Below are positions 4,122 through 62,549 of a DNA stretch of 64,000 bases, in pieces. The notes beneath the pieces were generated by a model. The model did no database searches. It saw only the letters and a program-made list of their open reading frames with translations, and had not been told where the DNA came from. The position numbers and the translations under genes are program-made. This stretch comes from Candidatus Magasanikbacteria bacterium RIFOXYC2_FULL_42_28. GTDB taxonomy: Bacteria > Patescibacteriota > Patescibacteriia > Magasanikbacterales > GWA2-37-8. The stretch is taken from NCBI GenBank assembly GCA_001784435.1, contig MFQZ01000009.1:11324-75323 (forward strand), read 5' to 3'. Within the stretch, counting starts at the first letter, position 1, and every line of letters starts with the position of its first letter.

Positions 4122-5108
4122 TTAATCTTTTTTTGCTTCTGATTCAGATAGTTTTTCCCGCGCCCCTACTGCGTCAAATACCGGTTTTACATCCGGATCA
4201 TCTAAATCCATCCCTTCAATTTTACTGCGCACGATGGCGTTCCAAACATCAGTCTCACTCATTTTTAAATATTGGGCCATACCAACAATTACTTCATCCA
4301 AAAATTTTCTTTCCTTTTTATAACCATCATTAACCTCCAAAATATCCAGAACATCCTTAACCGTTTGGGGAGCATATGTTTCCCCATGGCAACGCAATAA
4401 ATACTTTTTCATTATGTCCCTAGTCAATCGTTCAGTAACAGCCTCATCAAACAATCTAAACCTCGAACTTGAAGAGCCCTGAGTTCTATCGTGTTCTGAA
4501 TAACCCCCTCTTGATTTACCCAAACGCACCGGCACCATACCATCTAACATATGTTCTATCACCCAAGCCGCCGCTCTTTTAACTATTGAATCAATCTTTT
4601 GTTCTTCTAAGAGATTATATGAAATAGCGTGAACTTTTTCGTGAATCATTGTATGTAAAACATTAGCAAACATCAAATTCTCATCAACAATCAAATGTCC
4701 TTTTGTTTTTTGCTTTTGACCGCCCTGAATCCAGGCCTTCGCAACCAAAAGCTTGGCATCCAAAAAAATTTTATTAGCGTGAGGGGAATAAAATCCATCA
4801 AAAGCGCTCCCACTTTCTTCCAGCTTTTTAAAATCTTCCACTACAACTTCGGCTTCGTTAAAATTTAATTTCTCTGGACTAACACCACTTTTCGCGCCAA
4901 TTTCTTCAAAAATATTTTGCAGTTCAACCATATTAACTCGTGACAAAAATTCCTCAACCGCTTTTGACCACACCTCAAATGAGCTCCTGTCTGATTTTTC
5001 AGTAAATAATCTTTCACGAACCGGCTCCTCTGCTTGGTCAAGCAAAGTTTGAAATCTTTCCGGTTGCATTGGCCGGCCACGAAAATCAATTATCTCTCTC
5101 GGACTCAT
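4122..5108 (-). CDS. Hypothetical protein with an HExxH zinc-metallopeptidase motif
   Basis: 328-aa ORF containing HTMIHEKVHAISYN. It ends 8 nt upstream of the AAA+ gene on the same strand. Confidence 0.45.
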   Translation of the reverse strand: MSPREIIDFRGRPMQPERFQTLLDQAEEPVRERLFTEKSDRSSFEVWSKAVEEFLSRVNMVELQNIFEEIGAKSGVSPEKLNFNEAEVVVEDFKKLEESGSAFDGFYSPHANKIFLDAKLLVAKAWIQGGQKQKTKGHLIVDENLMFANVLHTMIHEKVHAISYNLLEEQKIDSIVKRAAAWVIEHMLDGMVPVRLGKSRGGYSEHDRTQGSSSSRFRLFDEAVTERLTRDIMKKYLLRCHGETYAPQTVKDVLDILEVNDGYKKERKFLDEVIVGMAQYLKMSETDVWNAIVRSKIEGMDLDDPDVKPVFDAVGAREKLSESEAKKD

Positions 5109-5189
5109 AAATATAATAAATCAAAACAACATCACTATAATACCATATCTTGCCTTTTTCCACAAAATATGGTAAATTTACCGCAAAAT

Positions 5190-6440
5190 ATGCCATTTTT
5201 TAATTTACAACACACCGACAACCGCGCCCGCGCCGGCGTTCTCCATACTGCTCATGGCGATATTGCAACGCCTTGCTTTATGCCCGTCGGCACCCAAGCC
5301 ACTGTTAAAACTTTGGATTCTTTGGATTTGGAAAATTTAAACGCGCCAATAATTTTAGGAAATACTTACCACTTGCATTTGCGTCCGGGCGAAGATTTGA
5401 TTGACACGGCCGGTGGATTACATAAATTTATGAATTGGAAACGACCGATTTTGACTGACTCGGGTGGATTTCAAGTTTTTTCACTTGGTCTACAAAAGGA
5501 CACCAAATTGTCATTTCGAACCGAGCGTAGCGAGCGTGAGAAATCTCCATCCGGTAAACAATACAATAATGGAGATCCCTCGCTTGACGCTCGGGATGAC
5601 AGCAAGAACGGCAACGAAAAACTCGTAAAAATCGACGACGACGGCGTTACCTTCCGCTCGCACATTGACGGCTCTACCCATCGCTTTACCCCCGAATCCG
5701 CCATTGAAACTCAACACAAACTCGGCGCCGATATAATCATGGCTTTTGACGAATGCACACCTGATCGGGCTTCGCCTGGCTACGCCCGACAAGCCATGGA
5801 ACGAACACATCTTTGGGCCGAGCGCTGCATTACTGAACACAAAAAAGAAACTAACCGCCACGGCTACCCCCAATTTTTATTTGGCATAATCCAAGGCGCC
5901 AACCATCAGGACTTACGCGAAGAATCTGCGAAATTTATTTGCGCGCAAGATTTTGACGGCATCGCGGTCGGCGGTGAATCTATCGGCTACAATATGGAAG
6001 CCACTGACGAAATTTTAAAATGGGTGCACCCGTATTTACCAACTAATAAACCACATTACGCAATGGGGATGGGGCTTGATCCAGCTGATTTACTCGTCGC
6101 GGTTGAAAATGGCATTGATATGTTTGATTGCGTCGCGCCGACACGATTGGCTCGGCATGGAATGATATTTACAAAAACAAAAGATAAAAGTGGTAAACAT
6201 AGAATGAATATAAAAAACAGTAGTTTTGCTACTGATTTTAGTCCGATTGAGCTGGATTGCACTTGTCACACCTGCCAAAATTACACGCGCGCGTATATCC
6301 ATCATTTATTCGCGGCCGAGGAGATGACCGCCATGCGCCTGACATCCATTCACAATTTACATTTTATGGTAGATTTGATGAAACAAACACGCGAGGCAAT
6401 TTTAAATAATAATTTTGCGGAATTTAAGAAAAATTTCTAA
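5190..6440 (+). CDS. tgt: Queuine tRNA-ribosyltransferase with a ~30-aa repeat-derived insertion
   Basis: MPFFNLQHTDNRARAGVLHTAHGDIATPCFMPVGTQATVK, ILTDSGGFQVFSL, and a C-terminal zinc site CTCHTCQNYTRAYIHHLF. The start is chosen by N-terminal similarity to Tgt (M-x-F-x-L...GRAR). Confidence 0.85.
   Translation: MPFFNLQHTDNRARAGVLHTAHGDIATPCFMPVGTQATVKTLDSLDLENLNAPIILGNTYHLHLRPGEDLIDTAGGLHKFMNWKRPILTDSGGFQVFSLGLQKDTKLSFRTERSEREKSPSGKQYNNGDPSLDARDDSKNGNEKLVKIDDDGVTFRSHIDGSTHRFTPESAIETQHKLGADIIMAFDECTPDRASPGYARQAMERTHLWAERCITEHKKETNRHGYPQFLFGIIQGANHQDLREESAKFICAQDFDGIAVGGESIGYNMEATDEILKWVHPYLPTNKPHYAMGMGLDPADLLVAVENGIDMFDCVAPTRLARHGMIFTKTKDKSGKHRMNIKNSSFATDFSPIELDCTCHTCQNYTRAYIHHLFAAEEMTAMRLTSIHNLHFMVDLMKQTREAILNNNFAEFKKNF
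5508..5596 (+). mobile_element. RPE-like palindromic repeat (family 1), complete copy inserted in-frame in tgt
   Basis: The copy reads TTGTCATTTCGAACCGAGCGTAGCGAGCG...GAGAAATCTCCATCC...AATGGAGATCCCTCGCTTGACGCTCGGGATGACA. Both hairpin ends are present, and it translates as KLSFRTERSEREKSPSGKQYNNGDPSLDARDDS. Confidence 0.6.
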
Positions 6441-7048: not shown

Positions 7049-7055
7049 CGAGCGA

Positions 7056-7176
7056 AATGTCAAATTTCCAATTTCCAATGTCAAACCAAATCCAAATTTC
7101 AAATAACAAATACCGAATTTGACATTTTTACTTTGACATTGATTGGAAATTGGAAATTTGGATTTTGAAATTATCA
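7056..7176 (+). repeat. Long palindromic AATTTCCAATTTCCAATGTCAAA...TTTGACATTGGAAATTTGGATTTTGAAATT element (family 2)
   Basis: ~120 bp imperfect hairpin starting 8 nt after the rlmH stop. Four other copies occur at 12119, 19341, 43964 and 62441. Confidence 0.7.
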
Positions 7177-9180: not shown

Positions 9181-9204
9181 ATACCTTTTAATTTCCAAAT
9201 CCAC

Positions 9205-9304
9205 TTGTCATTCCGACAACGAAGGAGGAATCTCTATCCCGTTGGCTATTGCAGGCCAAATGGAGATCCCTCGTCGGATGCGAATCCTCACTCGGGATGA
9301 CAAA
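9205..9304 (+). mobile_element. RPE-like palindromic repeat (family 1), intergenic copy
   Basis: TTGTCATTCCGACAACGAAGGAGGAATCTCTATCCC...CAAATGGAGATCCCTCGTCGGATGCGAATCCTCACTCGGGATGACAA. Confidence 0.65.
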
Positions 9305-9348: not shown

Positions 9349-10857
9349 ATGTTTTTCAAACTCCAAACCGCCGCCACCGTCGGCCTAGACGCTCGCCCCG
9401 TTGATGTAGAAGTAGACATCAGCAAAGGCCAAACGATGTTCAACATCGTCGGCCTCGCCGACACATCCATCAAAGAAGCGCGCGACCGCGTCCATTCGGC
9501 TTTGAAAAATTCCGGATTTAATTATCCGTTTAATTTTCGGATTTTAATAAATTTAGCGCCGGCGGATTTACCAAAAGAAGGCACGGGCTATGATTTGCCG
9601 ATAGCGGTTGGACTGATTGCCGTGTCGCAAAACATCGCTTTGAATACCGCGGACTCCTTGCTCGTGGGACAGTTGGCATTGGACGGTGCCGTGCGCCACA
9701 CCCCCGGGATTTTACCAATGGCGGTGTATGCCAAATCCGCCGGTTGTCGCGCCTTGTATGTGCCGGCAATGGACGCGCCCGAGGCGGCGCTCGTGCGGGG
9801 TCTGACAATTTATCCGGTCAAAAATTTAACGCAGATAATGGATCATTTAACCGGCAAAGATTTAATCGCGCCCTATGTGGCCGAAGCACCAGCGCCATTT
9901 ATCGCGGACGCGGGCGGGTTAGATATGAGCATGATTAAAGGCCAAGAATTCGCCAAGCGCGCGTTAGAAGTCGCGGCCGCCGGTGGCCATAATATTTTGT
10001 TGTCCGGCCCACCCGGTTCGGGAAAAACTTTGCTCGCCCGCACTTTGCCTTCTATCTTACCACCACTACTCACTGACGAAGCATTAGAAATTACCAAAAT
10101 TTATTCTATCGCTGGCCTGTTGCCATCTGGTTTAATTATGGAACGACCATTTCGCGGACCACACCACACCATTTCGCATGTCGCGCTTGTGGGCGGTGGA
10201 AGATGTCCGCGCCCGGGCGAAATTTCACTGTCACATCGCGGGGTTTTATTTTTAGATGAATTTCCGGAATTTCCGCGCACAGTTTTGGAGGCGCTCCGCC
10301 AACCTTTGGAAGATGGTCAAATTACCATTGCCCGCGCGCACGGCTCTTTAACTTTTCCCGCGCGTTTTATTTTAGTGGCCAGTCAAAATCCGTGCCCCTG
10401 TGGCTACAATTCGGACCCCGACAAGGCCTGCACTTGCTCATCAGCGCAAATTTCCAATTACACGCGCAAAATCAGTGGACCGATTTTGGATAGAATTGAT
10501 TTACAAGTAGAAGTCCCCCGCGTGCCGTTTGAAAAATTATCCGATTCGTCTTTGGCCGAATCATCGGCCGTGATTGCCGAGCGCGTGCGCGTGGCGCGTG
10601 ACCGCCAAACCGAACGACTGGCCAACACCAAAATTTTAACCAACAGCGAAATGGGTAATGCCGAAATTCGCGCTCATTGCCAATTAGACAAAGAATCCGT
10701 GGCGCTACTCCGTAGCGCGGTTGACCGCTTACATTTATCCGCGCGAGCGTATGGCCGAATTTTAAAATTGGCCAGGACGATTGCAGATTTGAATGCGCGT
10801 GAGAATATTGAGGTGGTGGATATTGCGGAGGCGCTACAGTATCGGGGGAAGGAGTAA
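9349..10857 (+). CDS. comM: Mg-chelatase-like AAA+ ATPase, YifB/ComM family
   Basis: 502 aa. It has an N-terminal Lon-like domain, Walker A GPPGSGKT, VLFLDEFPEF, and a C-terminal Mg-chelatase subunit ChlI domain. Confidence 0.85.
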   Translation: MFFKLQTAATVGLDARPVDVEVDISKGQTMFNIVGLADTSIKEARDRVHSALKNSGFNYPFNFRILINLAPADLPKEGTGYDLPIAVGLIAVSQNIALNTADSLLVGQLALDGAVRHTPGILPMAVYAKSAGCRALYVPAMDAPEAALVRGLTIYPVKNLTQIMDHLTGKDLIAPYVAEAPAPFIADAGGLDMSMIKGQEFAKRALEVAAAGGHNILLSGPPGSGKTLLARTLPSILPPLLTDEALEITKIYSIAGLLPSGLIMERPFRGPHHTISHVALVGGGRCPRPGEISLSHRGVLFLDEFPEFPRTVLEALRQPLEDGQITIARAHGSLTFPARFILVASQNPCPCGYNSDPDKACTCSSAQISNYTRKISGPILDRIDLQVEVPRVPFEKLSDSSLAESSAVIAERVRVARDRQTERLANTKILTNSEMGNAEIRAHCQLDKESVALLRSAVDRLHLSARAYGRILKLARTIADLNARENIEVVDIAEALQYRGKE

Positions 10858-10870
10858 ATAAAATTTCAAA

Positions 10871-10969
10871 TTGTCATTTCGACGACGAAGGAGAAATCTC
10901 TATCCCAATCGATTACCAATGGAGATCCCTCGTCCCGACTAAGTCGGGAGTCCTCGCTCGGGATGACAA
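10871..10969 (+). mobile_element. RPE-like palindromic repeat (family 1), the fullest copy
   Basis: TTGTCATTTCGACGACGAAGGAGAAATCTCTATCCCAATCGATTACCAATGGAGATCCCTCGTCCCGACTAAGTCGGGAGTCCTCGCTCGGGATGACAA, 13 nt after the comM stop. Confidence 0.7.
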
Positions 10970-10971
10970 AA

Positions 10972-11475: not shown

Positions 11476-12036
11476 TTATTTAGCCATCGCCAACTGCGTC
11501 GGCACGGGCACAATTTCCGGATAATAAACCTCTACAACCAAACGCTTCACCCCAAACTTCATGGCTTCAGCGCGGGTGGTATCTAACCAAATGTCAAAAC
11601 GTTCACAACCATATTTTTTATTCATCCGGTCAGAAACACGGAGTACCAAATTCTTGTCATATTCAGGGATCTTCACAGCGGTATTATGTTTCAAACAGTT
11701 ATTGGCAATCATGCCATCATATACCTGCTCGCCCCAAGCGGCCGTAAACGGATCATCGTCGGTTTGGCCCTTCGTGCTGGTATAAGCCGTAATTACCCCA
11801 TTTATTGTATAACTTGGCTTTTTATCAATATACGGGTAAAACATGCGGTCGGCCTGGGTTTGGCTTAAAACATGGTTTTTGTCGGTATTTTGGCTAATAT
11901 CAGCCAAAACAGTGGTCGGAATGACAATTTGCCACAAAATAGCGCCCAACATAGCCAAATTATAGGCAATATTGGTATACTTGTGGTTGTTTTTTGGCTT
12001 AAATAACATATTTTTAGAAATTAAAAAGGATACCAT
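11476..12036 (-). CDS. 3D-domain (RlpA/MltA-like double-psi beta-barrel) protein, membrane-anchored
   Basis: TSTKGQTDDDPFTAAWGE...LRVSDRMNKKYGCERFDIWLD shows the three conserved Asp of the 3D domain. The start is MVSFLISKN (12036), because the track's N-terminus runs into the family 2 repeat. Confidence 0.55.
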   Translation of the reverse strand: MVSFLISKNMLFKPKNNHKYTNIAYNLAMLGAILWQIVIPTTVLADISQNTDKNHVLSQTQADRMFYPYIDKKPSYTINGVITAYTSTKGQTDDDPFTAAWGEQVYDGMIANNCLKHNTAVKIPEYDKNLVLRVSDRMNKKYGCERFDIWLDTTRAEAMKFGVKRLVVEVYYPEIVPVPTQLAMAK

Positions 12037-12118
12037 ATACCGGTACCCCTGATTTGCTAACTGAATAGTATAGCACAAATTGGCATTTTTGTCAAGATGA
12101 GGTATAATATCCCTGAAA

Positions 12119-12228
12119 TGACAAATGTCAAATTTCCAATTTCCAATCAAATCCAAATTTCCAATATCAAATTAGACATTTTGATTTTGACATTGATTTG
12201 ACATTGGAAATTTGGATTTTGAAATTAT
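12119..12228 (+). repeat. Family 2 long palindromic element
   Basis: TGACAAATGTCAAATTTCCAATTTCCAATCAAATCCAAATTTCC...TTTGACATTGGAAATTTGGATTTTGAAATTATCAC. It lies in the divergent intergenic region and ends 6 nt before the pbp start. Confidence 0.7.
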
Positions 12229-18462: not shown

Positions 18463-18570
18463 AGAAAAATCATTTATAGTGTTCGTATTTTACCATGAAA
18501 ACAAAGTTATCCACAACCACGGATAATTCCGTTTTTTGGCTTAATTGGGGATAAGTTGGGGATAAGTGTT
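18463..18570. promoter_or_regulatory. Second DnaA-box cluster upstream of dnaA (TTATCCACA at 18507-18515, TGGGGATAA x2 at 18546-18565)
   Basis: A perfect consensus box plus two variants. This is the typical dnaA autoregulatory/origin arrangement. Confidence 0.55.
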
Positions 18571-18617
18571 ATAATATCAAAATATAAATATCAAAAATCA
18601 AAATTCGACCGTTGGGC

Positions 18618-19340: not shown

Positions 19341-19452
19341 AATGTCAAATTTCCAATTTCCAATGTCAAATCAAATCCAAAGCTCAAATTACGAATTTGA
19401 CATTTTGATTTTGACATTGATTTGACATTGGAAATTTGGATTTTGAAATTAA
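19341..19452 (+). repeat. Family 2 long palindromic element
   Basis: AATGTCAAATTTCCAATTTCCAATGTCAAATCAAATCCAAAGCTCAAATTACGAATTTGACATTTTGATTTTGACATTGATTTGACATTGGAAATTTGGATTTTGAAATT. It starts 2 nt after the rnpA stop and ends 1 nt before the yidD ATG. Confidence 0.7.
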
Positions 19453-22262: not shown

Positions 22263-22305
22263 TTTGTCATTTGTCATCCCGAGCGCAGCCGAGGGATCCC
22301 TTAAA
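22263..22305 (+). mobile_element. Family 1 repeat, solo half-copy (TTGTCATCCCGAGCGCAGCCGAGGGATCCCTTAAAC)
   Basis: It matches the left arm of the 22610-22712 copy. Confidence 0.5.
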
Positions 22306-22591
22306 CCCATTCTGCGCTTAAATCTTTCCAATGCGGATTGATTTGTTTAATTAAAAATTCTTTTTTGTCTCGACGCCAACTCTTTAACTGTTTCTCTCGG
22401 GTTATCGCCGTGTTGATATCTTGATAGTGTTCATAAAAAACTAGTCTGCCAACATCATATTTTTTTGTAAATCCTTCAACTAATTTTTGTTTATGTTCAG
22501 AAAGTCGTTTTTCTAAATTATTTGTAACGCCGGTGTATAGCGTGCCACTATCACTTGCCAATATGTAAACATAATAATTGTGCTGTTTCAT
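22301..22591 (-). CDS. GIY-YIG nuclease-domain protein (UPF0213-like)
   Basis: YYVYILASDSGTLYTGVTNNLEKRLSEHK is the GIY-YIG core. The start is taken at MKQHNYYVYIL. Confidence 0.65.
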   Translation of the reverse strand: MKQHNYYVYILASDSGTLYTGVTNNLEKRLSEHKQKLVEGFTKKYDVGRLVFYEHYQDINTAITREKQLKSWRRDKKEFLIKQINPHWKDLSAEWV

Positions 22592-22609
22592 AGATTTGTA
22601 AATGTGATC

Positions 22610-22712
22610 GTCGTTTGTCATTCCGAGCGTAGCCGAGGAATCCCTTAAACTTATTATTGTACAAATACTATCTGTAAGGGATCCCTCCGCTCGCTAAGGC
22701 TCGGTCGGGATG
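22610..22712 (+). mobile_element. Family 1 repeat (variant subtype with both arms)
   Basis: TTGTCATTCCGAGCGTAGCCGAGGAATCCCTTAAAC...TAAGGGATCCCTCCGCTCGCTAAGGCTCGGTCGGGATGACAAG. Confidence 0.6.
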
Positions 22713-22720
22713 ACAAGCGA

Positions 22721-30302: not shown

Positions 30303-30314
30303 AGTGTTAATTTA

Positions 30315-30362
30315 AAATGTAAATATCAAAATGGAAAATGACAAGTTAAAATTAAAAATAAG
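30315..30362. repeat. AT-rich AAATATCAAAATG...ACAAGTTAAAATTAAAAAT repeat (family 4)
   Basis: Near-identical to 35918-35975. Related ATATCAAAA units occur at 18571-18610 and in-frame in polA (36836-36870, 38694-38725). Confidence 0.45.
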
Positions 30363-35915: not shown

Positions 35916-35917
35916 AA

Positions 35918-35975
35918 AAAATATCAAAAATTAAATATCAAATATCAAAATGACAATTTAAAATTAAAAATTTAC
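35918..35975. repeat. Family 4 AT-rich repeat
   Basis: AAAAAATATCAAAAATTAAATATCAAATATCAAAATGACAATTTAAAATTAAAAATTTACAG. Confidence 0.45.
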
Positions 35976-36187: not shown

Positions 36188-38905
36188 ATGAAGAAACTTG
36201 TTATTATAGATGGGAACGCAATAATACATAGGGCCTATCACGCCATTCCGCCCATGAACACCAAAAACGGGATGATGGTCAATGCGGTGTATGGGTTTAC
36301 TTCCATGTTGTTGCGCGTTTGGAAAGATTTAAAGCCGACACATATTGCCGTCACTTTTGATATGCGCGGTCCGACTTTTCGGCATGAAAAATTTAAGGAA
36401 TACAAAGCCACGCGCGTGAAAGCGGATCAGGAATTGTATGATCAGATTCCTTTGGTGCACAATGTTGTTCGTGCTTTTAATATTCCGATTTATGAAAAGG
36501 CCGGTTATGAGGCCGACGATGTGATTGGCACGGTCGCTCGCATGGTAGAAAATAAAAAAGAGGTTGAGACGTATATTGTGACGGGTGATAAAGATACTCT
36601 ACAGTTGATTGAGCCAGGGGTGAAAGTTTTTACCTTGCGTAAAGGGATGAGTGATACGGTAATTTATGATGCCGAGGGTGTAAAAGAAAAATTTGGATTT
36701 TTACCGGATAAAATGGTGGATTACAAAGCGCTGGCCGGTGATGCGTCGGATAATATTCCGGGGGTGCCGGGGGTGGGAGAGAAGACGGCGACAGATTTGA
36801 TTCAGAAGTTTGGGGGGATTGATGAGATTTATGATAATATCAAAAATCAAAAATCAAATATCAAAGATATTAAGGCGGGTGTCTTGAAAAAATTGATTGA
36901 CGGCGAAGAGTCGGCGCGGATGAGTTTTGAACTTGCGACGATTGACCGCAATGTTCCGGGGGTGGATTTTAAGTTGGAAGATTGCGTGGCAAAAGAATTT
37001 GACCGCGAGAAAGTGGTTAAGATTTTTCAGGAGTTGGAGTTTATGTCGTTGTTGAAGCGTTTACCCGGCGAAGCATTAGCGAAGACGGGGTTGCCGGGGG
37101 CGAGTGGGGATGGAGATCCCTCGCTTGACACTCGGGATGACAAACAAAAAAAAGTCCGAGCGAAATTTAAAGTTGATGAAATAAAGACAAAAGATGAAGT
37201 TGAGAAATTAGTTGAGCAGATTCGTAAAACAAAATCATTTGCCTGCCGTGAGGCCACGGCTGGACGTGAAGTTTATAATTCAGAATTGTTTGGTGTGGCG
37301 GTTATTGTTTCTGGCGCCGGATATTTTATTAGTGAAAAATTATTAAAAGAATTTTTGCCGGTATTTGAATTTTCGGATTGTGAATTCGTTGGTCATGATT
37401 TAAAACAGTTAATCAAAATTTTAAAACTGCAGGGCGTGGAAATAAAAAATAAATTGTTTGACACGATGATCGCGTCGTATCTGCTGGAACCGGGCAGTCG
37501 GGCGCATGACAGCGCCAGTATTGTTTTGAAAGTGTTAGGCCAAGAATTACCAGCCGGTGCCGGGCAGAATAGTTTGTTTGGGGCGGATATGCTTGCGGTA
37601 ACACAAGAATTATACCAACTATCTTTGGCGGCCGAAAAATTAAAAAAAGAATTAGTCGCGATTAGCGATTTTGGTTTAATGGAAAAAATAGAGATGCCAC
37701 TTTTGCCGGTCCTCGCGCAAATGGAATTAAACGGTATTGCCGTGGATTTAAAATTACTACAAAAATTATCCGAACAAGTGACGGCGGAAATTAAAACCGT
37801 GAGCGCGACTATTTTTAAATTGAGTGGAACGGAATTTAATATCTCGTCGCCGACACAATTGCGCGAAGTGCTGTTTGAAAAAATGGAAATTCCAGTGGAA
37901 GGAATTAAAAAAGGCAAAACCGGTTTGTCCACTTCTGCCGAACAGTTAGAAAAATTGCGCGGTCAACACCTAATCATTGAACATATTGAAAATTATCGCG
38001 AATTGGAAAAATTGCGCAATACCTATATTGATGTTTTGCCGACTTTGATAAATAAAAAGACCGGTCGGATTCACACCACTTTTAATCAGGCGGTCGCGGC
38101 GACTGGGCGCCTGTCATCGTCTGATCCAAATTTACAAAATATTCCCATTCGCACGGAGTTGGGGCGCAAGATCCGCAAGGCCTTTGTGGCCGAAGATGGC
38201 AATGTGCTTATTTCCGCCGATTATTCGCAAATTGAATTGCGCGTGGTGGCATCACTCGCCGAGGATAAAAAAATGATGGAAATTTTTGAGGCTGGTTTGG
38301 ATATTCACGCGGCGACAGCAGCGGCGATAAATCATGTGGATTTAAAAGATGTTACCAAGGACATGCGTCGCGCGGCCAAGGAAGTAAATTTTGGCGTGTT
38401 GTATGGCATGGGCGCATATGGCTTGGCTTGGCGGGCCGATATTCCCCAGTGGCAAGCCAAAGATTTTATTGATAAATATTTTAGTGAATTTAGTGGTGTG
38501 AAAAAATATTTAGACGCGACTTTGGAATTTACCAAAAAAGAGGGATACTGCGAAACACTGTTTGGTCGGCGCCGGTATATTCCGGAATTAAACGCCAGCA
38601 ACCACCAATTGCGGATGGCCGGCGAACGGATGGCGATTAATCATCCGATTCAGGGGACGGCCGCGGATTTGATTAAGATGGCGATGATAGAAATATCAAA
38701 ATGTAAATATCAAAATGAAAAATTATTGAGCGACGATGTGCGAATGATATTACAAGTGCACGACGAATTGGTGTTTGAAGTAAAAAAAGAATTGGCTGAT
38801 GAAGTCGGTAAAAAGGTAAAAGAAATTATGGAGGGTGTGGCCAAATTGCGCGTGCCGATTGTGGTGGAGGTGAATGTTTCTAAAAGTTGGGGGGAGATGA
38901 AATAA
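36188..38905 (+). CDS. polA: DNA polymerase I (5'-3' exonuclease, 3'-5' exo-like and polymerase domains)
   Basis: 905 aa. The polymerase motifs are RRAAKEVNFGVLYGM (motif B) and QVHDELVFEV (motif C). The N-terminal FEN-like domain is present. Confidence 0.9.
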   Translation: MKKLVIIDGNAIIHRAYHAIPPMNTKNGMMVNAVYGFTSMLLRVWKDLKPTHIAVTFDMRGPTFRHEKFKEYKATRVKADQELYDQIPLVHNVVRAFNIPIYEKAGYEADDVIGTVARMVENKKEVETYIVTGDKDTLQLIEPGVKVFTLRKGMSDTVIYDAEGVKEKFGFLPDKMVDYKALAGDASDNIPGVPGVGEKTATDLIQKFGGIDEIYDNIKNQKSNIKDIKAGVLKKLIDGEESARMSFELATIDRNVPGVDFKLEDCVAKEFDREKVVKIFQELEFMSLLKRLPGEALAKTGLPGASGDGDPSLDTRDDKQKKVRAKFKVDEIKTKDEVEKLVEQIRKTKSFACREATAGREVYNSELFGVAVIVSGAGYFISEKLLKEFLPVFEFSDCEFVGHDLKQLIKILKLQGVEIKNKLFDTMIASYLLEPGSRAHDSASIVLKVLGQELPAGAGQNSLFGADMLAVTQELYQLSLAAEKLKKELVAISDFGLMEKIEMPLLPVLAQMELNGIAVDLKLLQKLSEQVTAEIKTVSATIFKLSGTEFNISSPTQLREVLFEKMEIPVEGIKKGKTGLSTSAEQLEKLRGQHLIIEHIENYRELEKLRNTYIDVLPTLINKKTGRIHTTFNQAVAATGRLSSSDPNLQNIPIRTELGRKIRKAFVAEDGNVLISADYSQIELRVVASLAEDKKMMEIFEAGLDIHAATAAAINHVDLKDVTKDMRRAAKEVNFGVLYGMGAYGLAWRADIPQWQAKDFIDKYFSEFSGVKKYLDATLEFTKKEGYCETLFGRRRYIPELNASNHQLRMAGERMAINHPIQGTAADLIKMAMIEISKCKYQNEKLLSDDVRMILQVHDELVFEVKKELADEVGKKVKEIMEGVAKLRVPIVVEVNVSKSWGEMK
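37109..37144 (+). mobile_element. Family 1 repeat half-copy embedded in-frame in polA
   Basis: ATGGAGATCCCTCGCTTGACACTCGGGATGACAA translates as GDGDPSLDTRDDK, in the linker between the 5'-exo and 3'-exo-like domains. Confidence 0.55.
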
Positions 38906-38908
38906 ATT

Positions 38909-39046
38909 ATGATTATCTATCTATCCGGCCCCGACACCTTTCGGAGTCGGCAATATTTAAAAGAACAAGTGGAGAAGCTTAAAATTGCCCACTACTACGA
39001 TGGATACGAGAAAATTTTAGAAGATATTTTGGCTAATATATAATAA
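38909..39046 (+). pseudogene. Truncated duplicate of the holA 5' end (45-aa remnant)
   Basis: MIIYLSGPDTFRSRQYLKEQVEKLKIA matches MIIFIHGPDTFRSRQYLKEQVEKFKIA of holA at 43001. The two are ~90% identical at the DNA level over 83 bp, and the copy starts 3 nt after the polA stop. Confidence 0.6.
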
Positions 39047-39120: not shown

Positions 39121-40536
39121 ATGTCATTTATAAATCGTGAACAAGAGTTAAAAATGCTAAATGAAAAATGGCAATCAAATATCGCTCAGTTTTTTATTAT
39201 TTATGGTAAACGCCGCGTTGGCAAGACTGAGTTGATTAAACAATTTATCAAAGACAAACCAGCGTTATATTTTTTAGCCGATAAGCGCACGACGGCGGAT
39301 CAATTGCGGGAGCTGGGGCAAATAGTGGGAAATTATTTTAAGGATGAAATTCTGATTAGCAATGGTTTTAGTGATTGGTTGGAAGTATTTCTATATTTAA
39401 AAACAAAGACAATCACCGAACCTTTGATTTTGGCGATAGACGAATATCCGTATTTGGTTGAAAATGATAAATCCACCAGTTCGCTTTTTCAAAAGGGTTG
39501 GGATGAATATTTAAAAAATACTAAAATATTTTTGATACTGTCCGGGTCCAGCATCGCCATGATGGAATCGGAAACGCTGAACCAAAGCGCGCCGTTGTTT
39601 GGCAGGCGTACCGGTCAAATTTTGGTTGACCCATTAAATTTTTTGCAATCGCGCCAATTTTTTCCAGAGAAAAATTTTTCTGATTTTTTAAATATCTACA
39701 CTATTACCGGTGGCATGCCGGCGTATTTGAAACAGTTTGAAGAGGGCGCGGGAATGTCCGAAGAGATTAAGAATAAAATTTTTAACAAAACCGCTTTTTT
39801 ATACAACGAAGTGGAGTTTACCCTGAAAGAAGAGTTGCGTGAACCAAAAAATTATTTAGCAATTTTGCGCGCCATTGCACTCGGGAAAAGAAAGTTAAGT
39901 GAAATTGTTAATGAAGTCGGGATGGACACAGCCGCCACCAACAAATATCTTTCGGTGCTTATTAATTTGCGTTTGGCGGAACGGGAGGTGCCGGTAACCG
40001 AGAATAAGCCGGAGAAGTCGCGACGCGGTTTGTATAAAATTTTGGATAATTTTTTTGGATTTTGGTTTCAATATATTTTTCCTTATAAAAGTTATTTGGA
40101 AATGGGCAATTATAATTATGTTTTGGAGAAAATGTTTAGCGGTTTAAAATATAATGATAAGGTTAATTCCGGTTTCAAACTTATTGTCGCGCAAGTTTAT
40201 GAACGCGTCGCGATTGAATTGCTGCCCGCTTGGCAAGATAAAATTTTCTCGTTTGAGCGCGTTGGTCGTTATTGGGACAATAATCAAGAAATTGATGTGG
40301 TGGGGATAAGTTTGCCGGAAAAGAAAATAATTTTCGGTGAGTGTAAGTGGTCCGAAAAACCAGTGGGGACAGATATTTATGAAGAATTAAAAAAGAAAGC
40401 GGAAAAAGTGGAGTGGAATTTGGGCGATAGAAAAGAATTTTATATTTTATTTAGTAAGAGTGGTTTTACCGAGGCAATGATAAAAATAGCGAAGAGCGAA
40501 GGTGTGTTTTTAGTGGAGAAGGATACTATGAAGTAA
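39121..40536 (+). CDS. AAA+ ATPase (archaeal-ATPase/DUF234 type)
   Basis: The Walker A is IIYGKRRVGKTEL and the Walker B LAIDEYPYLV. The C-terminal DUF234-like domain is present. Confidence 0.65.
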   Translation: MSFINREQELKMLNEKWQSNIAQFFIIYGKRRVGKTELIKQFIKDKPALYFLADKRTTADQLRELGQIVGNYFKDEILISNGFSDWLEVFLYLKTKTITEPLILAIDEYPYLVENDKSTSSLFQKGWDEYLKNTKIFLILSGSSIAMMESETLNQSAPLFGRRTGQILVDPLNFLQSRQFFPEKNFSDFLNIYTITGGMPAYLKQFEEGAGMSEEIKNKIFNKTAFLYNEVEFTLKEELREPKNYLAILRAIALGKRKLSEIVNEVGMDTAATNKYLSVLINLRLAEREVPVTENKPEKSRRGLYKILDNFFGFWFQYIFPYKSYLEMGNYNYVLEKMFSGLKYNDKVNSGFKLIVAQVYERVAIELLPAWQDKIFSFERVGRYWDNNQEIDVVGISLPEKKIIFGECKWSEKPVGTDIYEELKKKAEKVEWNLGDRKEFYILFSKSGFTEAMIKIAKSEGVFLVEKDTMK

Positions 40537-40652: not shown

Positions 40653-41195
40653 TCAAAATGCATATGACACCCCGGGTTGAAAGAGCAAGGTCCAGATGCC
40701 GGTGCCGAGCGTGGTGCCCGGGCCGACCACGAGCGCCAGTGACAAGCCGTTGCCGATTTTGACACTGGTGCCGAGTCCGCCACCGATGAAGTGGGAGTGG
40801 GGTGTGTTGTTGTACCAGTAGTTAAACTGGTACACGACCGAGGTGCTCACTCCGACTCGATCGGTGAGCGCGTATGACACTCCGATTCCAGCGCGTGGGG
40901 CAGGACGGAAGGTGTCATTCGGCGTTTTGAAGCCGATGAGGGCGGACACACCGAAGTTATTCGGCAGTTTCCACCCGAGCGACAGGTGGAGCCGGGTGGA
41001 AACCTCGCCTGGGGAGGTCGCACCGTCTTTAAAGACGATGATCATCCCTTCGGCCATCGCCACCGAGACGCTCGGAGTGGTCGGGTTGGGCTCTTCACCG
41101 GCGTTGGCGCACATTGAGATCATCAAAACTCCGATGATGGTTACCAGCCAGATCATTCCACCCGTCAGAAAACAAGTTTTCGCCATCCTATTCAT
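40653..41195 (-). CDS. OmpW/OmpA-like small beta-barrel outer-membrane-type protein (GC-rich, likely foreign)
   Basis: The signal peptide is MNRMAKTCFLTGGMIWLVTIIGVLMISMCANA. Alternating amphipathic beta-strands end in ...FQPGVSYAF (an aromatic beta-signal). GC is ~56% against a ~40% background. Confidence 0.45.
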   Translation of the reverse strand: MNRMAKTCFLTGGMIWLVTIIGVLMISMCANAGEEPNPTTPSVSVAMAEGMIIVFKDGATSPGEVSTRLHLSLGWKLPNNFGVSALIGFKTPNDTFRPAPRAGIGVSYALTDRVGVSTSVVYQFNYWYNNTPHSHFIGGGLGTSVKIGNGLSLALVVGPGTTLGTGIWTLLFQPGVSYAF

Positions 41196-41336
41196 CTCAC
41201 CCTCCTTTTTGTAGAAGAACCTGCCGAGACCATCTCGACTTAGCATTATATCATAAAATAATATACATGTCAAGGGTTATTTGGCTAATATAAGGCAAAA
41301 AGTAGTCAAGTTTGTAATGATTAAACTAAAATTATC

Positions 41337-41402: not shown

Positions 41403-42956
41403 ATGATTGAAAATCAATTAAAACAGTTGGGTTTTGGTAAAAATGAAATTAAAATATATTTGGCTTTGTTTGAATTAGGCAAATGTAAGGCGCATGAGGT
41501 AATTGTTCATACTGGTTTGCATCGCAATATTGTGTATCAAGATTTAGAGGATTTAGTTAAGCGGGGGTTGGTGACAAAAACTGAAGTTAAAAATGTTTTT
41601 GAATACAGCGCCAATAATCCCGAGGCATTAGTAGAGGAATTTGAAAACAAAAAAGAAATATCGCAAAAAATCGCCGAACAGTTAAAAGAAAAACAAATTG
41701 AAACACCGCGCGAGGTGGCGGTGTATGAAGGGGTGGATGGTTTGAAAAAAAGCCGAGCCAAAATTTTAAATTATCAATCCGGTGATGAAGTTTTTATTTT
41801 TGGCGCTGATTTAGAACCATCAATGGAAAAAGTAATGCGTAAAATTCACAAAAAACGCGAGGATGCTGGGATTAATATGAAAATTTTATACGACCAAAGC
41901 GCTAACAAATCGGATGTTGCTTGGCGTAATACATTGGAGCATAGTAAAGCAAAATTATTGCCATTTAGTCAAAAGTTTCCAATTTGGTTTGCTGGTATTG
42001 GAGAGCATTTGGAAATTGGTATACCACAACATAACAATCCCTTAATTTTTAATATTCGCAACCAAGAAGCAGTTGATGGTTTTAAAACTTTTTTTGATTA
42101 TTTTTGGAATCAAGAAAGCATAAGTTACCAAGGGATAGATGAAGTAGAGTCGGCCTATAATGAAATTTTGGAAAATTCGAGTAATGACCAGGATGTTGTG
42201 ATTTTTGCAGCTAAGCCAAGCGAGCAGAGAAGTTCTAATTTTAATTTAGAGTGGAATAAGCAATTGCGGAAAAAAGTTAAACGTTTGCGTTTGTTATATT
42301 ATGGCGCAAATGAAATTAATATCAGTAGGGCAAAAGAAATGTTGGACGTGGGCGCAGAAGCAAAAGTGAGTGGCACTAGCCAGTCGCTTCCAATTTCTAC
42401 AATTATTGCTGGTGATGTTGTGTTAACGGTGGTTTGGGATAAAAATCCAGCTTGTTTTAAAATAAAAAATAAAACAGTAGCTGATTCTTTAAAAAATAAT
42501 TTTGAATTATTGTGGAATCAGCAGGTTGGTGTTGAATCTGGCTTAGATCCATTGAAAAATATTATTTATGAAATGTTAGATGAATTAAATTCTGGGGAAG
42601 AGTATTGCGTGCTGGGTGCTTCGTATGGCCATGAGACCGGCGGGGTTCAAGAATTGTATGATAAATTTCATACCGACAGAATTAAAAAAGGTGTAGTGAC
42701 GAAAATGTTAGTTTATCGTGAATCATTTGAGCGGATAAAAAAACGGTTTGAGAGATGTGGTGATCAGTTTGGCAAAGTAAGCCAGTTGAAACAATATGGG
42801 TCTGCGCCGAAAATACCTATGCAAATTAATTTATATAATAACAAGGCATTTATAATTTTTTATGGCGAGGCTCCAACTGTAATTAAATTTAATCGGCCGG
42901 AATTTTTTGCCGGGTTTAAAACTTATTTTGATGAGCTGTGGAGAAAGGGTGGATAA
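41403..42956 (+). CDS. TrmB-family regulator, long form (paralogue of 23576..24310)
   Basis: The N-terminal NEIKIYLALFELGKCKAHEVIVHTGLHRNIVYQDLEDLVKRGLV is TrmB wHTH. A duplicated C-terminal sugar-binding-like domain is present. Confidence 0.55.
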   Translation: MIENQLKQLGFGKNEIKIYLALFELGKCKAHEVIVHTGLHRNIVYQDLEDLVKRGLVTKTEVKNVFEYSANNPEALVEEFENKKEISQKIAEQLKEKQIETPREVAVYEGVDGLKKSRAKILNYQSGDEVFIFGADLEPSMEKVMRKIHKKREDAGINMKILYDQSANKSDVAWRNTLEHSKAKLLPFSQKFPIWFAGIGEHLEIGIPQHNNPLIFNIRNQEAVDGFKTFFDYFWNQESISYQGIDEVESAYNEILENSSNDQDVVIFAAKPSEQRSSNFNLEWNKQLRKKVKRLRLLYYGANEINISRAKEMLDVGAEAKVSGTSQSLPISTIIAGDVVLTVVWDKNPACFKIKNKTVADSLKNNFELLWNQQVGVESGLDPLKNIIYEMLDELNSGEEYCVLGASYGHETGGVQELYDKFHTDRIKKGVVTKMLVYRESFERIKKRFERCGDQFGKVSQLKQYGSAPKIPMQINLYNNKAFIIFYGEAPTVIKFNRPEFFAGFKTYFDELWRKGG

Positions 42957-43000
42957 AGTGTTTTGCATAACATTGGGGAACATATTATAATGAGCTTACT

Positions 43001-43963
43001 ATGATTATATTTATACACGGCCCCGACACCTTTCGGAGCCGGCAATATTTAAAAGAACAAGTGGAGAAATTTAAAATTGCCCGCGATCCACAGGGGTATA
43101 ATGTTGTGTTTGCGGACGCGGTGAGCGACGAGCCGGGGAAAATTTTAGGGGAGATTTCCAGCGCGCCGTTTTTGGCAGATAAGAGAATGATTGTTGTAGA
43201 AAATATTTTGGCATGCAAGGATAAGGATTTTATGGCTACGCTCATTGAAATGGTAAAAAATAATAAAGTGCCGGAAAGTAATGTTGTTTTGTTTTGGCAA
43301 GGCGAAGATAAATCAAAAATAAAAGAAGTGGATGAATTGGATAAATTATTGAAAAAAGAAAAATACGCGAAAGAATTTGATATGTTAACGGGCGCGCAAT
43401 TGTCCGTTTGGATAAAACAGGAATTTGTTAAATCAAAAGCGACTGTCAGTATGCCGGCGTTAAATTTTTTGGCGCAGAACGCGGGTGGTGATATGTGGCG
43501 ATTGTCGTCTTTAATCGCGCAATTGTCGGCCTATGCCACTGGGCGCGAGGTCGGCGTGGAAGGTGTAAAATTATTTTTGGATGAAAAGGTTGATGATAAT
43601 GTTTTTAATATGGTGGAAGCGGTCGTGTCGGGCAATCGTAAGCAGGCGTATAAATTATTAACCGAGCAAAGGCGGTTAGGCGAAGAGGACGGAAAATTAT
43701 TTGGTTTGATATTGTGGCAATTTCGGATTTTGGTGAATTTAAGGTCGTTGTTTGAAACTGAAGATAATTTAACGGCTGATCAAATGGCTAAACAACTTGG
43801 TTTGCATCCGTTTGTCGTGAAAAAGAATTTGGCACTGGTAAAACGAATGAGCTCGGCACGCTTAAAAGAAATTTACGAGATGCTTTTGGATATTGATAAA
43901 AAAATAAAAACCGGGCGGGGGGACTTGGGGTTGTTGGTTGATGTGCTGGTGGGACGCTTATGA
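43001..43963 (+). CDS. holA: DNA polymerase III delta subunit
   Basis: 320 aa with the HolA N-terminal fold IFIHGPDTF...FLADKRMIVVEN and a C-terminal helical domain. Confidence 0.75.
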   Translation: MIIFIHGPDTFRSRQYLKEQVEKFKIARDPQGYNVVFADAVSDEPGKILGEISSAPFLADKRMIVVENILACKDKDFMATLIEMVKNNKVPESNVVLFWQGEDKSKIKEVDELDKLLKKEKYAKEFDMLTGAQLSVWIKQEFVKSKATVSMPALNFLAQNAGGDMWRLSSLIAQLSAYATGREVGVEGVKLFLDEKVDDNVFNMVEAVVSGNRKQAYKLLTEQRRLGEEDGKLFGLILWQFRILVNLRSLFETEDNLTADQMAKQLGLHPFVVKKNLALVKRMSSARLKEIYEMLLDIDKKIKTGRGDLGLLVDVLVGRL

Positions 43964-44066
43964 ATGTCAAATTTCCAATTTCCAATGTCAAATCAAAGCC
44001 AAAATGACAAATTTGACATTTTTATTTTGACATTGATTGGAAATTGGATATTTGGATTTTGAAATT
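43964..44066 (+). repeat. Family 2 long palindromic element
   Basis: It starts immediately after the holA TGA as AATGTCAAATTTCCAATTTCCAATGTCAAATCAAAGCC...TTTGACATTGATTGGAAATTGGATATTTGGATTTTGAAATT. Confidence 0.7.
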
Positions 44067-44101
44067 AGTAAAGTCAGACACATACAGAAGCTTGAGTTTA
44101 A

Positions 44102-61255: not shown

Positions 61256-62407
61256 ATGTCTTTTTCCATCGGGATTGTCGGATTGCCAAATGTCGGTAAA
61301 TCAACTTTATTTAATGCTTTGACGCGCAGTAAGCAAGCGGACGCTGCCAATTATCCTTTTTGCACTATTGATCCGAATGTGGGCGTAGTCGCGGTTCCGG
61401 ATGAGCGGTTAGCAAAGTTATCCGAAATTTCTAAATCAAAAAAAATTATCCCAACGGTGATTGAATTTGTGGATATTGCCGGTTTGGTAAAAGGCGCGAG
61501 CGAAGGCGAGGGTTTGGGTAATAAATTTTTATCACATATTCGCGAAGTGGACGCCATCGCGCAAGTAGTGCGCGCGTTTTCGGATAGTAATGTTATTCAT
61601 GTGAATAATAAAGTGGACCCAAAGAATGATAGCGAGGTGATTAATTTAGAATTGGCGTTGGCGGATTTACAAGTTGTTACCAAAAGATTAAGCACTGCCA
61701 AAAAAGATACCAAAGGTTCGGTGGCAAAAGACAAAGAAAAAGAAATTGAATTATTGACAAAAATTAATGCCCAGCTCGAGGCCGGCAAACCGGCGCGCGC
61801 GTTAGAATACAATGATGATGAAAAAATAATTTTAAAAAAATTACAGCTGTTGACAGCCAAACCGATGTTGTATGTGGTGAATACTGACGAAGGGGGCGGA
61901 ATTTCACCAATTGTTACTCCGACGACGAAGGAGGAATCTCTATCCCAATTGATTGCCAATGGAGATCCCTCGTCCCGACTAAGTCGGGAGTCCTCGCTCG
62001 GGATGACAACGCAAATAAACGTTTGTGCCAAGTTGGAAGCGGAATTGGCAGATTTGAGTGTGGAGGAAGCCAAAGAATATTTAAAAACTGCTGGCATTAC
62101 CGAAACCGGTTTGGATAAATTAGTTGTCGCCAGTTACAAATTATTGGATTTAATAACTTTTCTAACTTCGGGCGAACCGGAAACGCGCGCTTGGACGGTA
62201 AAAAATGGCGCGAGGGCCCCGGAAGCGGCCGGAGTCATTCACACGGATTTTATCAAAGGTTTTATTAAAGCCGATGTTTGTGACTGGCAAGATTTTGTTA
62301 CGCACCACGGTTGGTCAAAAATAAAAGAAACCGGAAAACTCCGATTAGAGGGAAAAGATTATGTCGTGAGAGATGGAGATGTTGTGTATTTCCATGTTAG
62401 TACCTGA
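61256..62407 (+). CDS. ychF: Ribosome-binding ATPase YchF (Obg family) with a repeat-derived insertion
   Basis: IGIVGLPNVGKSTLFNALT, NYPFCTIDPN and the C-terminal TGS domain (VVRDGDVVYFH). It is 383 aa, against ~363 aa typical for YchF. Confidence 0.85.
   Translation: MSFSIGIVGLPNVGKSTLFNALTRSKQADAANYPFCTIDPNVGVVAVPDERLAKLSEISKSKKIIPTVIEFVDIAGLVKGASEGEGLGNKFLSHIREVDAIAQVVRAFSDSNVIHVNNKVDPKNDSEVINLELALADLQVVTKRLSTAKKDTKGSVAKDKEKEIELLTKINAQLEAGKPARALEYNDDEKIILKKLQLLTAKPMLYVVNTDEGGGISPIVTPTTKEESLSQLIANGDPSSRLSRESSLGMTTQINVCAKLEAELADLSVEEAKEYLKTAGITETGLDKLVVASYKLLDLITFLTSGEPETRAWTVKNGARAPEAAGVIHTDFIKGFIKADVCDWQDFVTHHGWSKIKETGKLRLEGKDYVVRDGDVVYFHVST
61911..62009 (+). mobile_element. Family 1 repeat, full copy inserted in-frame in ychF
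   Basis: TTGTTACTCCGACGACGAAGGAGGAATCTCTATCCCAATTGATTGCCAATGGAGATCCCTCGTCCCGACTAAGTCGGGAGTCCTCGCTCGGGATGACAA is 96% identical to the 10871 copy and translates as IVTPTTKEESLSQLIANGDPSSRLSRESSLGMT. Confidence 0.65.
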
Positions 62408-62440
62408 TTATTCTTATGGAGTTAGAATAAGTATTAATAA

Positions 62441-62549
62441 TTTCAAAATCTAAATTTCCAATGTCAAATCAATGTCAAAATCTTAATGTCAAATTTAGTA
62501 TTTGAGCTTTGGATTTGATTTGACATTGGAAATTGGAAATTTGACATTT
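62441..62549 (+). repeat. Family 2 long palindromic element (variant)
   Basis: TTTCAAAATCTAAATTTCCAATGTCAAATCAATGTCAAAATC...GATTTGATTTGACATTGGAAATTGGAAATTTGACATTTCG, located between convergent ychF and the methyltransferase. Confidence 0.6.

Follow-up and report, generated by a model that had tools for sequence, protein, structure and literature searches.

A TGTC-tagged hairpin repeat lies in frame in the interdomain linker of DNA polymerase I in a Magasanikbacteria genome

The 64,000-nucleotide stretch of the genome of Candidatus Magasanikbacteria bacterium RIFOXYC2_FULL_42_28 that was analysed here (contig MFQZ01000009.1, positions 11,324 to 75,323; hereafter the window) carries polA, the gene for DNA polymerase I, a small gene for a GIY-YIG nuclease, and 12 copies, or arms, of a short hairpin repeat. 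One of these copies lies within polA on the minus strand, where it reads TTGTCATCCCGAGTGTCAAGCGAGGGATCTCCATCC from the tag TTGTC through the tail CTCCATCC, and it is translated in frame on the plus strand as (G)DGDPSLDTRDDK. This unit is one copy of the repeat. It adds sequence that all orthologues lack, and it is located in the disordered linker between two domains of the polymerase. A first-pass annotation, made from the letters alone, had proposed an in-frame repeat copy in polA, and the mapping bears this out: the 34-mer that it quoted, ATGGAGATCCCTCGCTTGACACTCGGGATGACAA, maps to 37110-37143, and the interval 37109-37144 corresponds to polA codons 308-319, with GDGDPSLDTRDDK representing PolA residues 307-319. 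The unit spans a whole number of codons, and the frame in which it is read contains no stop; five of its six reading frames are open. An empty site would read GGGGGCGAGTGG joined straight to ACAAAAAAAAGTCCGAGCG.

The repeat status of the segment is evident at the DNA level. Its 29-nt core has a second copy at 5574-5602 with two mismatches (0 expected from shuffles), and none of 100 shuffles yielded a second 29-mer within three mismatches. The 13-nt end CACTCGGGATGAC has eight matches in the window vs. 0.71 expected, the 12-nt tag TTGTCATYYCGA has 14 matches vs. 1.2 expected, and the polA segment is identical at 32 of 34 positions to an arm inside tgt. A hidden Markov model (HMM) of the arm, built from the 12 window arms, recovers exactly those 12 and one fragment, with the polA arm as the top match (34.8 bits, E 4.9e-10). 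This suggests that the polA arm is intact and not eroded, although the training set contained the polA arm itself and its rank is therefore mild evidence only. A chance or low-complexity match, or an assembly chimera, in which case the segment would be ordinary PolA sequence, might be considered for a compositionally unconstrained linker in a metagenome-assembled genome. The shuffles and the HMM E value make this explanation practically negligible; in addition, the open reading frame (ORF) stays open through the unit, the identical 905-aa protein is present on two public contigs, and a mis-join would need to have introduced exactly 36 nt, in frame.

At the protein level, the unit falls between the 5'-nuclease and the exonuclease-like (exo-like) domain, just where the first-pass annotation had placed it: the Pfam 5_3_exonuc match (aa 173-274) ends at residue 274 and the exo-like domain begins at residue 331. 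Within the latter, PF01612 over residues 331-453 scores 22.3 bits, slightly below its cut-off of 23.6, and PF22619 over residues 362-446 exceeds its cut-off. The interdomain linker of Pol I is a flexible, protease-sensitive segment, cleavage of which gives the Klenow fragment. The AlphaFold2 model (mean pLDDT 83) lacks secondary structure at residues 292-328 and has pLDDT values below 50 at 295-325. Among 120 aligned homologues, PolA is hypervariable in both sequence and length after the conserved SLLKRLPG, and the stretch that follows comprises 33 residues in the window protein vs. a median of 21. The peptide DPSLDTRDDK was found at the linker position in none of the 119 other PolA homologues listed. 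For Taq and mycobacterial Pol I, the alignable part breaks off at query residue 291-292 and restarts at residue 403 or later; consequently, the segment does not align as conserved PolA. The comparison of PolA orthologues with DNA-level repeat matches, which the first-pass annotation had recommended, thus combined a hypervariable linker and a peptide without counterpart with a 32/34 DNA match to the tgt arm, and the conservation in distant taxa that would have spoken against a repeat was not seen.

Table 1 Coordinates of polA, the hairpin repeat, the GIY-YIG gene and further repeat units in the window (window positions; aa, residues of PolA).
Feature	Position	Strand	Basis or remark
polA, DNA polymerase I gene	36188..38905	+	905-aa ORF
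PolA 5'-nuclease domain	aa 3-274		
PolA disordered linker	aa 292-328		
PolA exo-like domain	aa 331-453		
PolA polymerase domain	aa 523-903		
Solo monomer of TGTC-tagged hairpin repeat (SRM/NTS-like)	37108..37143	-	36 nt = 12 codons; HMM and repeat matches
Inverted dimer in tgt (ORF 5034-6440)	5507..5601		In frame, encodes SFRTERSEREKSPSGKQYNNGDPSLDARDDS
Inverted dimer, intergenic	9204..9304		Arm HMM
Inverted dimer, intergenic, 3' of ORF 9349-10857, followed by terminator-like hairpin	10870..10970		Arm HMM
Truncated remnant, tag and 5' stem half only	11913..11928	-	Tag search, HMM
Solo arm directly 3' of the GIY-YIG stop codon, inverted relative to the gene	22270..22304	+	HMM
ssnA-like single-domain GIY-YIG gene	22301..22621	-	PF01541, E 4e-17; longest ORF 106 aa
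Inverted arm pair upstream of and overlapping the GIY-YIG start	22614..22716		Arms 22614-22648 (+) and 22674-22716 (-); HMM
Inverted dimer in ychF (ORF 61256-62407)	61910..62009		In frame, encodes IVTPTTKEESLSQLIANGDPSSRLSRESSLGMT
A/T-rich family 4 unit in polA	36836..36865	+	Encodes NIKNQKSNIK; period-8 ATCAAA-type repeat
A/T-rich family 4 unit in polA, polymerase-domain loop	38691..38721	+	Encodes ISKCKYQNEK

The 12 arms of the window are arranged as five inverted pairs and two singletons, and five of the 12 lie inside conserved genes (tgt, ychF, and polA). The "family 1 element" of the first-pass annotation corresponds to an inverted pair of monomers with the tags facing outward. Family membership of the polA segment was correctly recognized, but its description as half an element has to be revised: given the dimeric nature of the family 1 element, the supposed half is really one basic unit, a complete 36-nt monomer, and a solo monomer also occurs at 22270-22304. 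The dimer in tgt places 44 query residues opposite one residue of the Z. mobilis TGT, directly after the conserved DSGGFQV motif, and the dimer in ychF accounts for about 20 additional residues relative to E. coli YchF; both sit in alignment gaps vs. solved structures. Within the ychF dimer, the tag and stem of the 5' arm are mutated (TTGTTACTCC), and the 3' arm has a 24-nt loop that holds its own hairpin, with the frame changing from D-P-S to L-G-M-T within the arm.

As 10 of the 12 window arms occur in inverted pairs, and as many singletons of repetitive extragenic palindromic (REP) repeats in Pseudomonas are dimer remnants (PMC3733652), the polA copy could alternatively be the 3' arm left over from a complete inverted dimer after its 5' arm decayed or was deleted. 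We regard this as unlikely. Local alignment of 78 nt upstream and 77 nt downstream of the copy with five partner arms, on both strands, detected no remnant of a partner arm, the flank alignments being at shuffle level (best p = 0.013 in 20 tests). The polA arm is moreover the most consensus-like in the window, so that decay of the partner alone would be odd, a solo arm exists next to the GIY-YIG gene, and the additional linker length of about 12 residues equals one monomer.

Two descriptions in the literature bear on the identity of the monomer. Di Nocera et al. 2013 defined CGTC-tagged REPs, which often carry TGTC in place of CGTC, open their stem with an A-T and a T-A pair, and mostly form inverted dimers; these REPs include dRS3 in Neisseria and RPE-4/RPE-6 in R. 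conorii, they are found inside known genes, with DNA polymerase I named among the replication and repair genes, and their describers knew of no enzyme for them (PMC3733652). Chenal et al. 2025 reported that NTS (CGTCATTCCCGCGMAVGCGGGAATCYRG), the longer form in Neisseria, and Ssn-related motifs (SRM) are bound and cut by SsnA, a GIY-YIG nuclease of about 94 aa with single-stranded DNA as its substrate, which recognises one of the two strands and cleaves immediately 5' of the hairpin (PMC11893778). The ssnA gene is typically flanked by the motif, NTS copies are dispersed by the hundreds, 2% of them lie inside genes in N. meningitidis, and SsnA/NTS pairs lower the integration of transforming DNA in that species (PMC11893778). 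The SRM-SsnA pairing was characterised in 2025, mainly in Proteobacteria, and Patescibacteria are absent from the paper (PMC11893778).

By its sequence, the polA unit is a member of this CGTC/TGTC-tagged REP class, alias NTS/Ssn-related motifs. On the minus strand, the unpaired tag TTGTC is followed by a stem of ATCCC and GGGAT, tandem G-A/A-G and a closing G-C pair around a 7-nt loop, and the tail completes the unit. Read tag-first, all copies follow one plan: TTGTC is followed by the stem ATYYC...GRRAT with an inner GA...GA(G), the loop measures 6-24 nt, and the tail is either CTCCAT or CCCTTA. Both the tag and the first stem pairs of CGTC REPs are thus present, and the stem of 8-9 bp and loop of 4-5 nt given for that class are not. 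The SRM description calls for a hairpin-capable inverted repeat of 20-50 nt, and here the hairpin is indicated by a compensatory 5-bp stem. A set of 26 arms was compared, drawn from the window and related loci and including two gonococcal copies. All changes at the three stem pairs that vary are compensatory; column pair 10/46 is U-A in 14 arms, C-G in 12, and unpaired in none, and the covariation score of 0.270 vs. 0.127 in shuffles was reached in 0 of 500. Pair 8/48 is A-U in all 26 arms and pair 9/47 is U-A in 25. In the alignment that includes two gonococcal NTS (A2), the non-palindromic 5' flank that orients the motif is well kept: G5, T6, and A8 never vary, and conservation reaches 90% or more at T4, C7, and T9. 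A polA gene of a relative (locus L003) holds TGTCATTCCCGCGCAGGCGGGAATCCAG (6413-6435), which agrees with the 28-nt Neisseria NTS consensus everywhere except at its first base.

The window also contains the second component expected from the SRM-SsnA pairing, a single-domain GIY-YIG gene flanked by the motif (PF01541). It has arms on both sides and is located about 14 kb from the polA copy. Its product shares 52% identity over 85 aa (BLASTP E 2e-28) with the NTS-flanked GIY-YIG protein of N. gonorrhoeae; this gonococcal locus, a tblastn match with nine NTS copies within 600 bp on either side, was used as the SsnA reference in place of N. meningitidis SsnA. The replicons that carry it in PLSDB (NZ_CP119142.1 and NZ_CP119140.1, 2.17 Mb) are filed as plasmids and are evidently chromosomes. 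Inverted arms bracket the GIY-YIG gene at a distance of about 4-50 nt in all four homologue loci, two of which are identifiably Patescibacteria. The GIY-YIG protein of the window is presumably the partner of the repeat, to judge by sequence similarity and gene arrangement. No NCBIfam model matches it, and its relatives in the PDB are UPF0213 proteins only (E 7e-6). Translation probably starts near 22591, because the database protein (P0121, 100% identical) has 96 aa. The gene does not look recently mobile, as its locus is syntenic with that of a relative, L125 (AP endonuclease, GIY-YIG, DUF167). The arms that bracket it carry the tail CCCTTA, and the copies in genes carry CTCCAT.

Comparison with described systems reveals likenesses and differences in each case. 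The NTS/SRM-SsnA system shares with the window an oriented hairpin, the tag (C/T)GTCAT, a 3' GGRATC half, and a motif-bracketed nuclease gene; in contrast, the window stem has tandem G-A/A-G where NTS has C-G/G-C, its loop is longer, and five of 12 window arms are in conserved genes as opposed to 2% in N. meningitidis. CGTC REPs resemble the window arms in the TGTC tag, the A-T/T-A first pairs, the predominance of inverted dimers, and the occurrence of units in genes. They differ in that, as described, they have fully paired stems of 8-9 bp, loops of 4-5 nt, and a CCA-like tail, whereas the window arms have five Watson-Crick pairs followed by G-A/A-G and G-C, loops of 6-24 nt, and tails of CTCCAT or CCCTTA, and in that the phyla covered in 2013 did not include Patescibacteria (PMC3733652). 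REP/RAYT systems (REPtrons) are alike in outline: their short tagged hairpins are dispersed singly or as inverted dimers, and repeats of the same system flank a small gene whose product is a DNA enzyme specific for single strands. Their tag is GTAG and their enzyme an IS200/IS605-type tyrosine (HUH) transposase, unlike the TGTC tag and the GIY-YIG nuclease of the window, where the arm-bracketed gene is not of the HUH/Y1 type. Rickettsia palindromic elements (RPEs), in work attributed to Ogata et al. 2000, reportedly lie in frame in conserved housekeeping genes and are tolerated as surface or loop peptides; they are said to be composite elements of about 100-150 bp in an alphaproteobacterial endosymbiont. 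Compared by description, the window repeats likewise occupy in-frame, fold-sparing positions (the polA linker with pLDDT <50; alignment gaps in tgt and ychF), but they comprise a 36-nt monomer and dimers of about 95 nt in Patescibacteria. The one tie between RPEs and the window repeat is the identity of RPE-4/RPE-6 with CGTC REPs (PMC3733652).

The repeat recurs in relatives and beyond. Orthologous polA genes at three related loci contain six (L001), two (L002), and six (L003) arms at several loops, and holA of L002 (6428-7606; DNA polymerase III delta subunit) contains three in-frame arms, CHPEPCLPAGRRSPKGGVEGS, HVILSGRSKGTPSGKDL, and DSSAAPQNDN. An exact-stem scan of species-representative genomes returned at least 120 loci, with Acidobacteriota, Verrucomicrobiota, Gemmatimonadota, Bacteroidota, Proteobacteria, Chloroflexota, Planctomycetes, Omnitrophota, and Patescibacteria among the matches listed. 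Of 153 arms from the other phyla, 37 fall within stretches of 200 or more codons free of stops, a rough upper bound on the intragenic share because GC-rich genomes inflate such stretches. In a literature search, repetitive extragenic palindromic repeats and Patescibacteria were not named together in any on-topic paper retrieved. The D[SP]S...[ND]D frame is the one used by all ten reverse-oriented intragenic arms of the window and the three orthologue loci; several of these arms share ancestry. Among 39 ORF-embedded arms in other phyla, this frame is used in two of the 13 reverse-oriented arms. Due to this low count and the shared ancestry within the set of ten, we do not claim a general frame bias.

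The many arms in orthologous polA and in holA raise the question of whether the unit is retained for a function, either as an SsnA target that modulates recombination or transformation at polA or as a folded mRNA or DNA segment between the gene's two halves, where translation or replication would slow down. The reduced integration of transforming DNA caused by SsnA/NTS pairs in N. meningitidis (PMC11893778) and the reported frequency of REPs in genes for replication and repair, DNA polymerase I among them (PMC3733652), would fit such a role. It is nevertheless very unlikely: the insertion is unique to the window lineage among 120 homologues, insertion sites vary among orthologues, tgt and ychF have also been struck, the monomer folds weakly, and it matches no Rfam family. 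Neutral survivorship, for its part, predicts enrichment in long essential genes with flexible loops. It is a doubtful but conceivable idea that hairpins are still spreading in Magasanikbacteria with a preference for replication genes (2-6 arms in polA, three in holA). If so, the SsnA-type GIY-YIG nuclease could be the mobilising enzyme, acting on single-stranded DNA at replication forks, and differently occupied polA and holA alleles in metagenomes would form a series of filled and empty sites from which the insertion mechanism of CGTC REPs/SRM could be read.

Folding calculations distinguish monomers from dimers. Single arms do not fold significantly (z -0.1 to -1.0), and only dimers fold clearly (z -5.3 and -2.7). 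An Rfam search of the whole window at the gathering threshold returned four tRNAs only, and permissive scans of the polA unit and one intergenic dimer produced no matches beyond noise, below threshold, on the neighbouring terminator.

Taken together, we estimate a probability of roughly 85% that the polA segment is one monomer of a dispersed REP-type hairpin repeat carried as a tolerated passenger in the linker. Several observations weigh against this interpretation. The degenerate SRM pattern has no matches in the window on either strand, and the polA unit also departs from the strict NTS consensus; its 7-nt loop exceeds the range of 4-5 nt described for CGTC REPs. The isolated polA monomer strand folds weakly (-4.1 kcal/mol, z -1.0), with a minimum-energy fold that differs from the proposed hairpin. 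To be picked by the finder, the arms from outside the window had to show stem complementarity, and this biases the covariation count towards pairing; the 12 arms of the window itself are cleaner evidence, because they were found by tag or HMM and not by complementarity, and 11 of them have a perfect 5-bp stem, in three different stem sequences. Scans of metagenome contigs with the polA flank and with the exact 33-nt unit found no empty-site or sister polA alleles in a collection that apparently lacks the source sample. As no empty-site allele of the window polA was found and the nearest non-identical PolA homologue is merely 70% identical, we infer the insertion from comparison and did not observe it. 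Furthermore, we know of no experiment that links any SsnA to the copying or insertion of its motif.

Under the passenger interpretation, the copy would have arrived via the uncharacterised spreading process of the repeat family, presumably involving single-stranded DNA intermediates and an SsnA-like nuclease. It may have survived because its 12 hydrophilic residues are harmless in a flexible linker; insertions at other sites, or ones that break the frame, would have been removed. The unit would then be a tolerated passenger and not a working part of PolA.

Since intragenic REPs, including copies in DNA polymerase I, were reported in 2013 (PMC3733652), the polA copy is a clear case of a described phenomenon and not a new kind of element, and by itself it leaves the understanding of PolA unchanged. 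What it adds is the extension of the NTS/SRM-SsnA pairing to Patescibacteria, with the same architecture of an arm-flanked gene, in a compact genome in which a large fraction of the copies (five of the 12 window arms) lies within essential genes. The repeats mark permissive loops in PolA, Tgt, and YchF. For annotation, they account for odd recurrent peptides such as CHPERSEGS, DSS..SAQNDS, and DPSL..RDDK in metagenome-derived protein predictions, and these segments are not protein motifs.

Other repeats surround the hairpin copy in polA. The first-pass annotation had also listed two in-frame units of an A/T-rich family 4 in the gene, and both proved to be real DNA repeats. The first matches intergenic positions 35920-35949 at 28 of 30 positions (0 expected). 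Its loop comprises 17 residues vs. an orthologue median of 18, and in relatives the same loop contains (AATCAAAA)x4 (L001) or a CCTGCCGGTAGGCAGG hairpin (L003). Given the other repeats in relatives and the lack of extra length relative to orthologues, this loop is best described as a repeat-prone site and not as a demonstrable recent insertion. The second unit belongs to the motif AAATATCAAAA, which occurs seven times in the window vs. 0.38 expected, twice in polA at 38691 and 38705; the 29-mer 38693-38721 has no second copy in the window within three mismatches. The polymerase-domain loop that holds this unit contains hairpin dimers in L001-L003, and pLDDT falls below 50 at residues 841-844. 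Intergenic family 4 units (AAATATCAAAA...AAAATGACAAnTTAAAATTAAAAAT) are located directly after or before genes at 35917-35975, 18556-18602, and 30314-30359, one of them between an M23 peptidase gene and a tRNA upstream of polA.

Two further kinds of repeat were encountered. The relatives contain a third hairpin type, CCTGCCGG(Y)AGGCAGG (L003 6706-6798 and 6949-7083; L002 6689-6750), translated as LPAGRQG or LPTGRQV; these hairpins are in frame in PolA loops of a relative and also occur within the loop of an SRM arm in holA. The window itself contains A/T-rich palindromic elements of about 110 nt, composed of AAATTTCCAAT / ATTGGAAATTT units, at 7049-7173, 12117-12227, 19341-19451, 43957-44067, and 62439-62549. 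Units of the AAATCNCAAAT type are translated as KSQILNSKSQINNKSQISKSKINN in the PolA linker of the relatives L001 and L002.

Downstream of polA, an 83-nt direct repeat with 90% identity (38908-38990 and 43000-43082) represents a duplicated 5' end of holA: a 44-aa stub ORF lies 3' of polA, and the full 320-aa holA begins at 43001. The two copies enclose 4.1 kb with an AAA-type ATPase gene (39121-40536), a minus-strand ORF (40653-41273), and a 517-aa ORF (41403-42956) that may encode a TrmB-like regulator. As holA directly follows polA in L002, the 4.1-kb segment looks like an inserted island with a target duplication.

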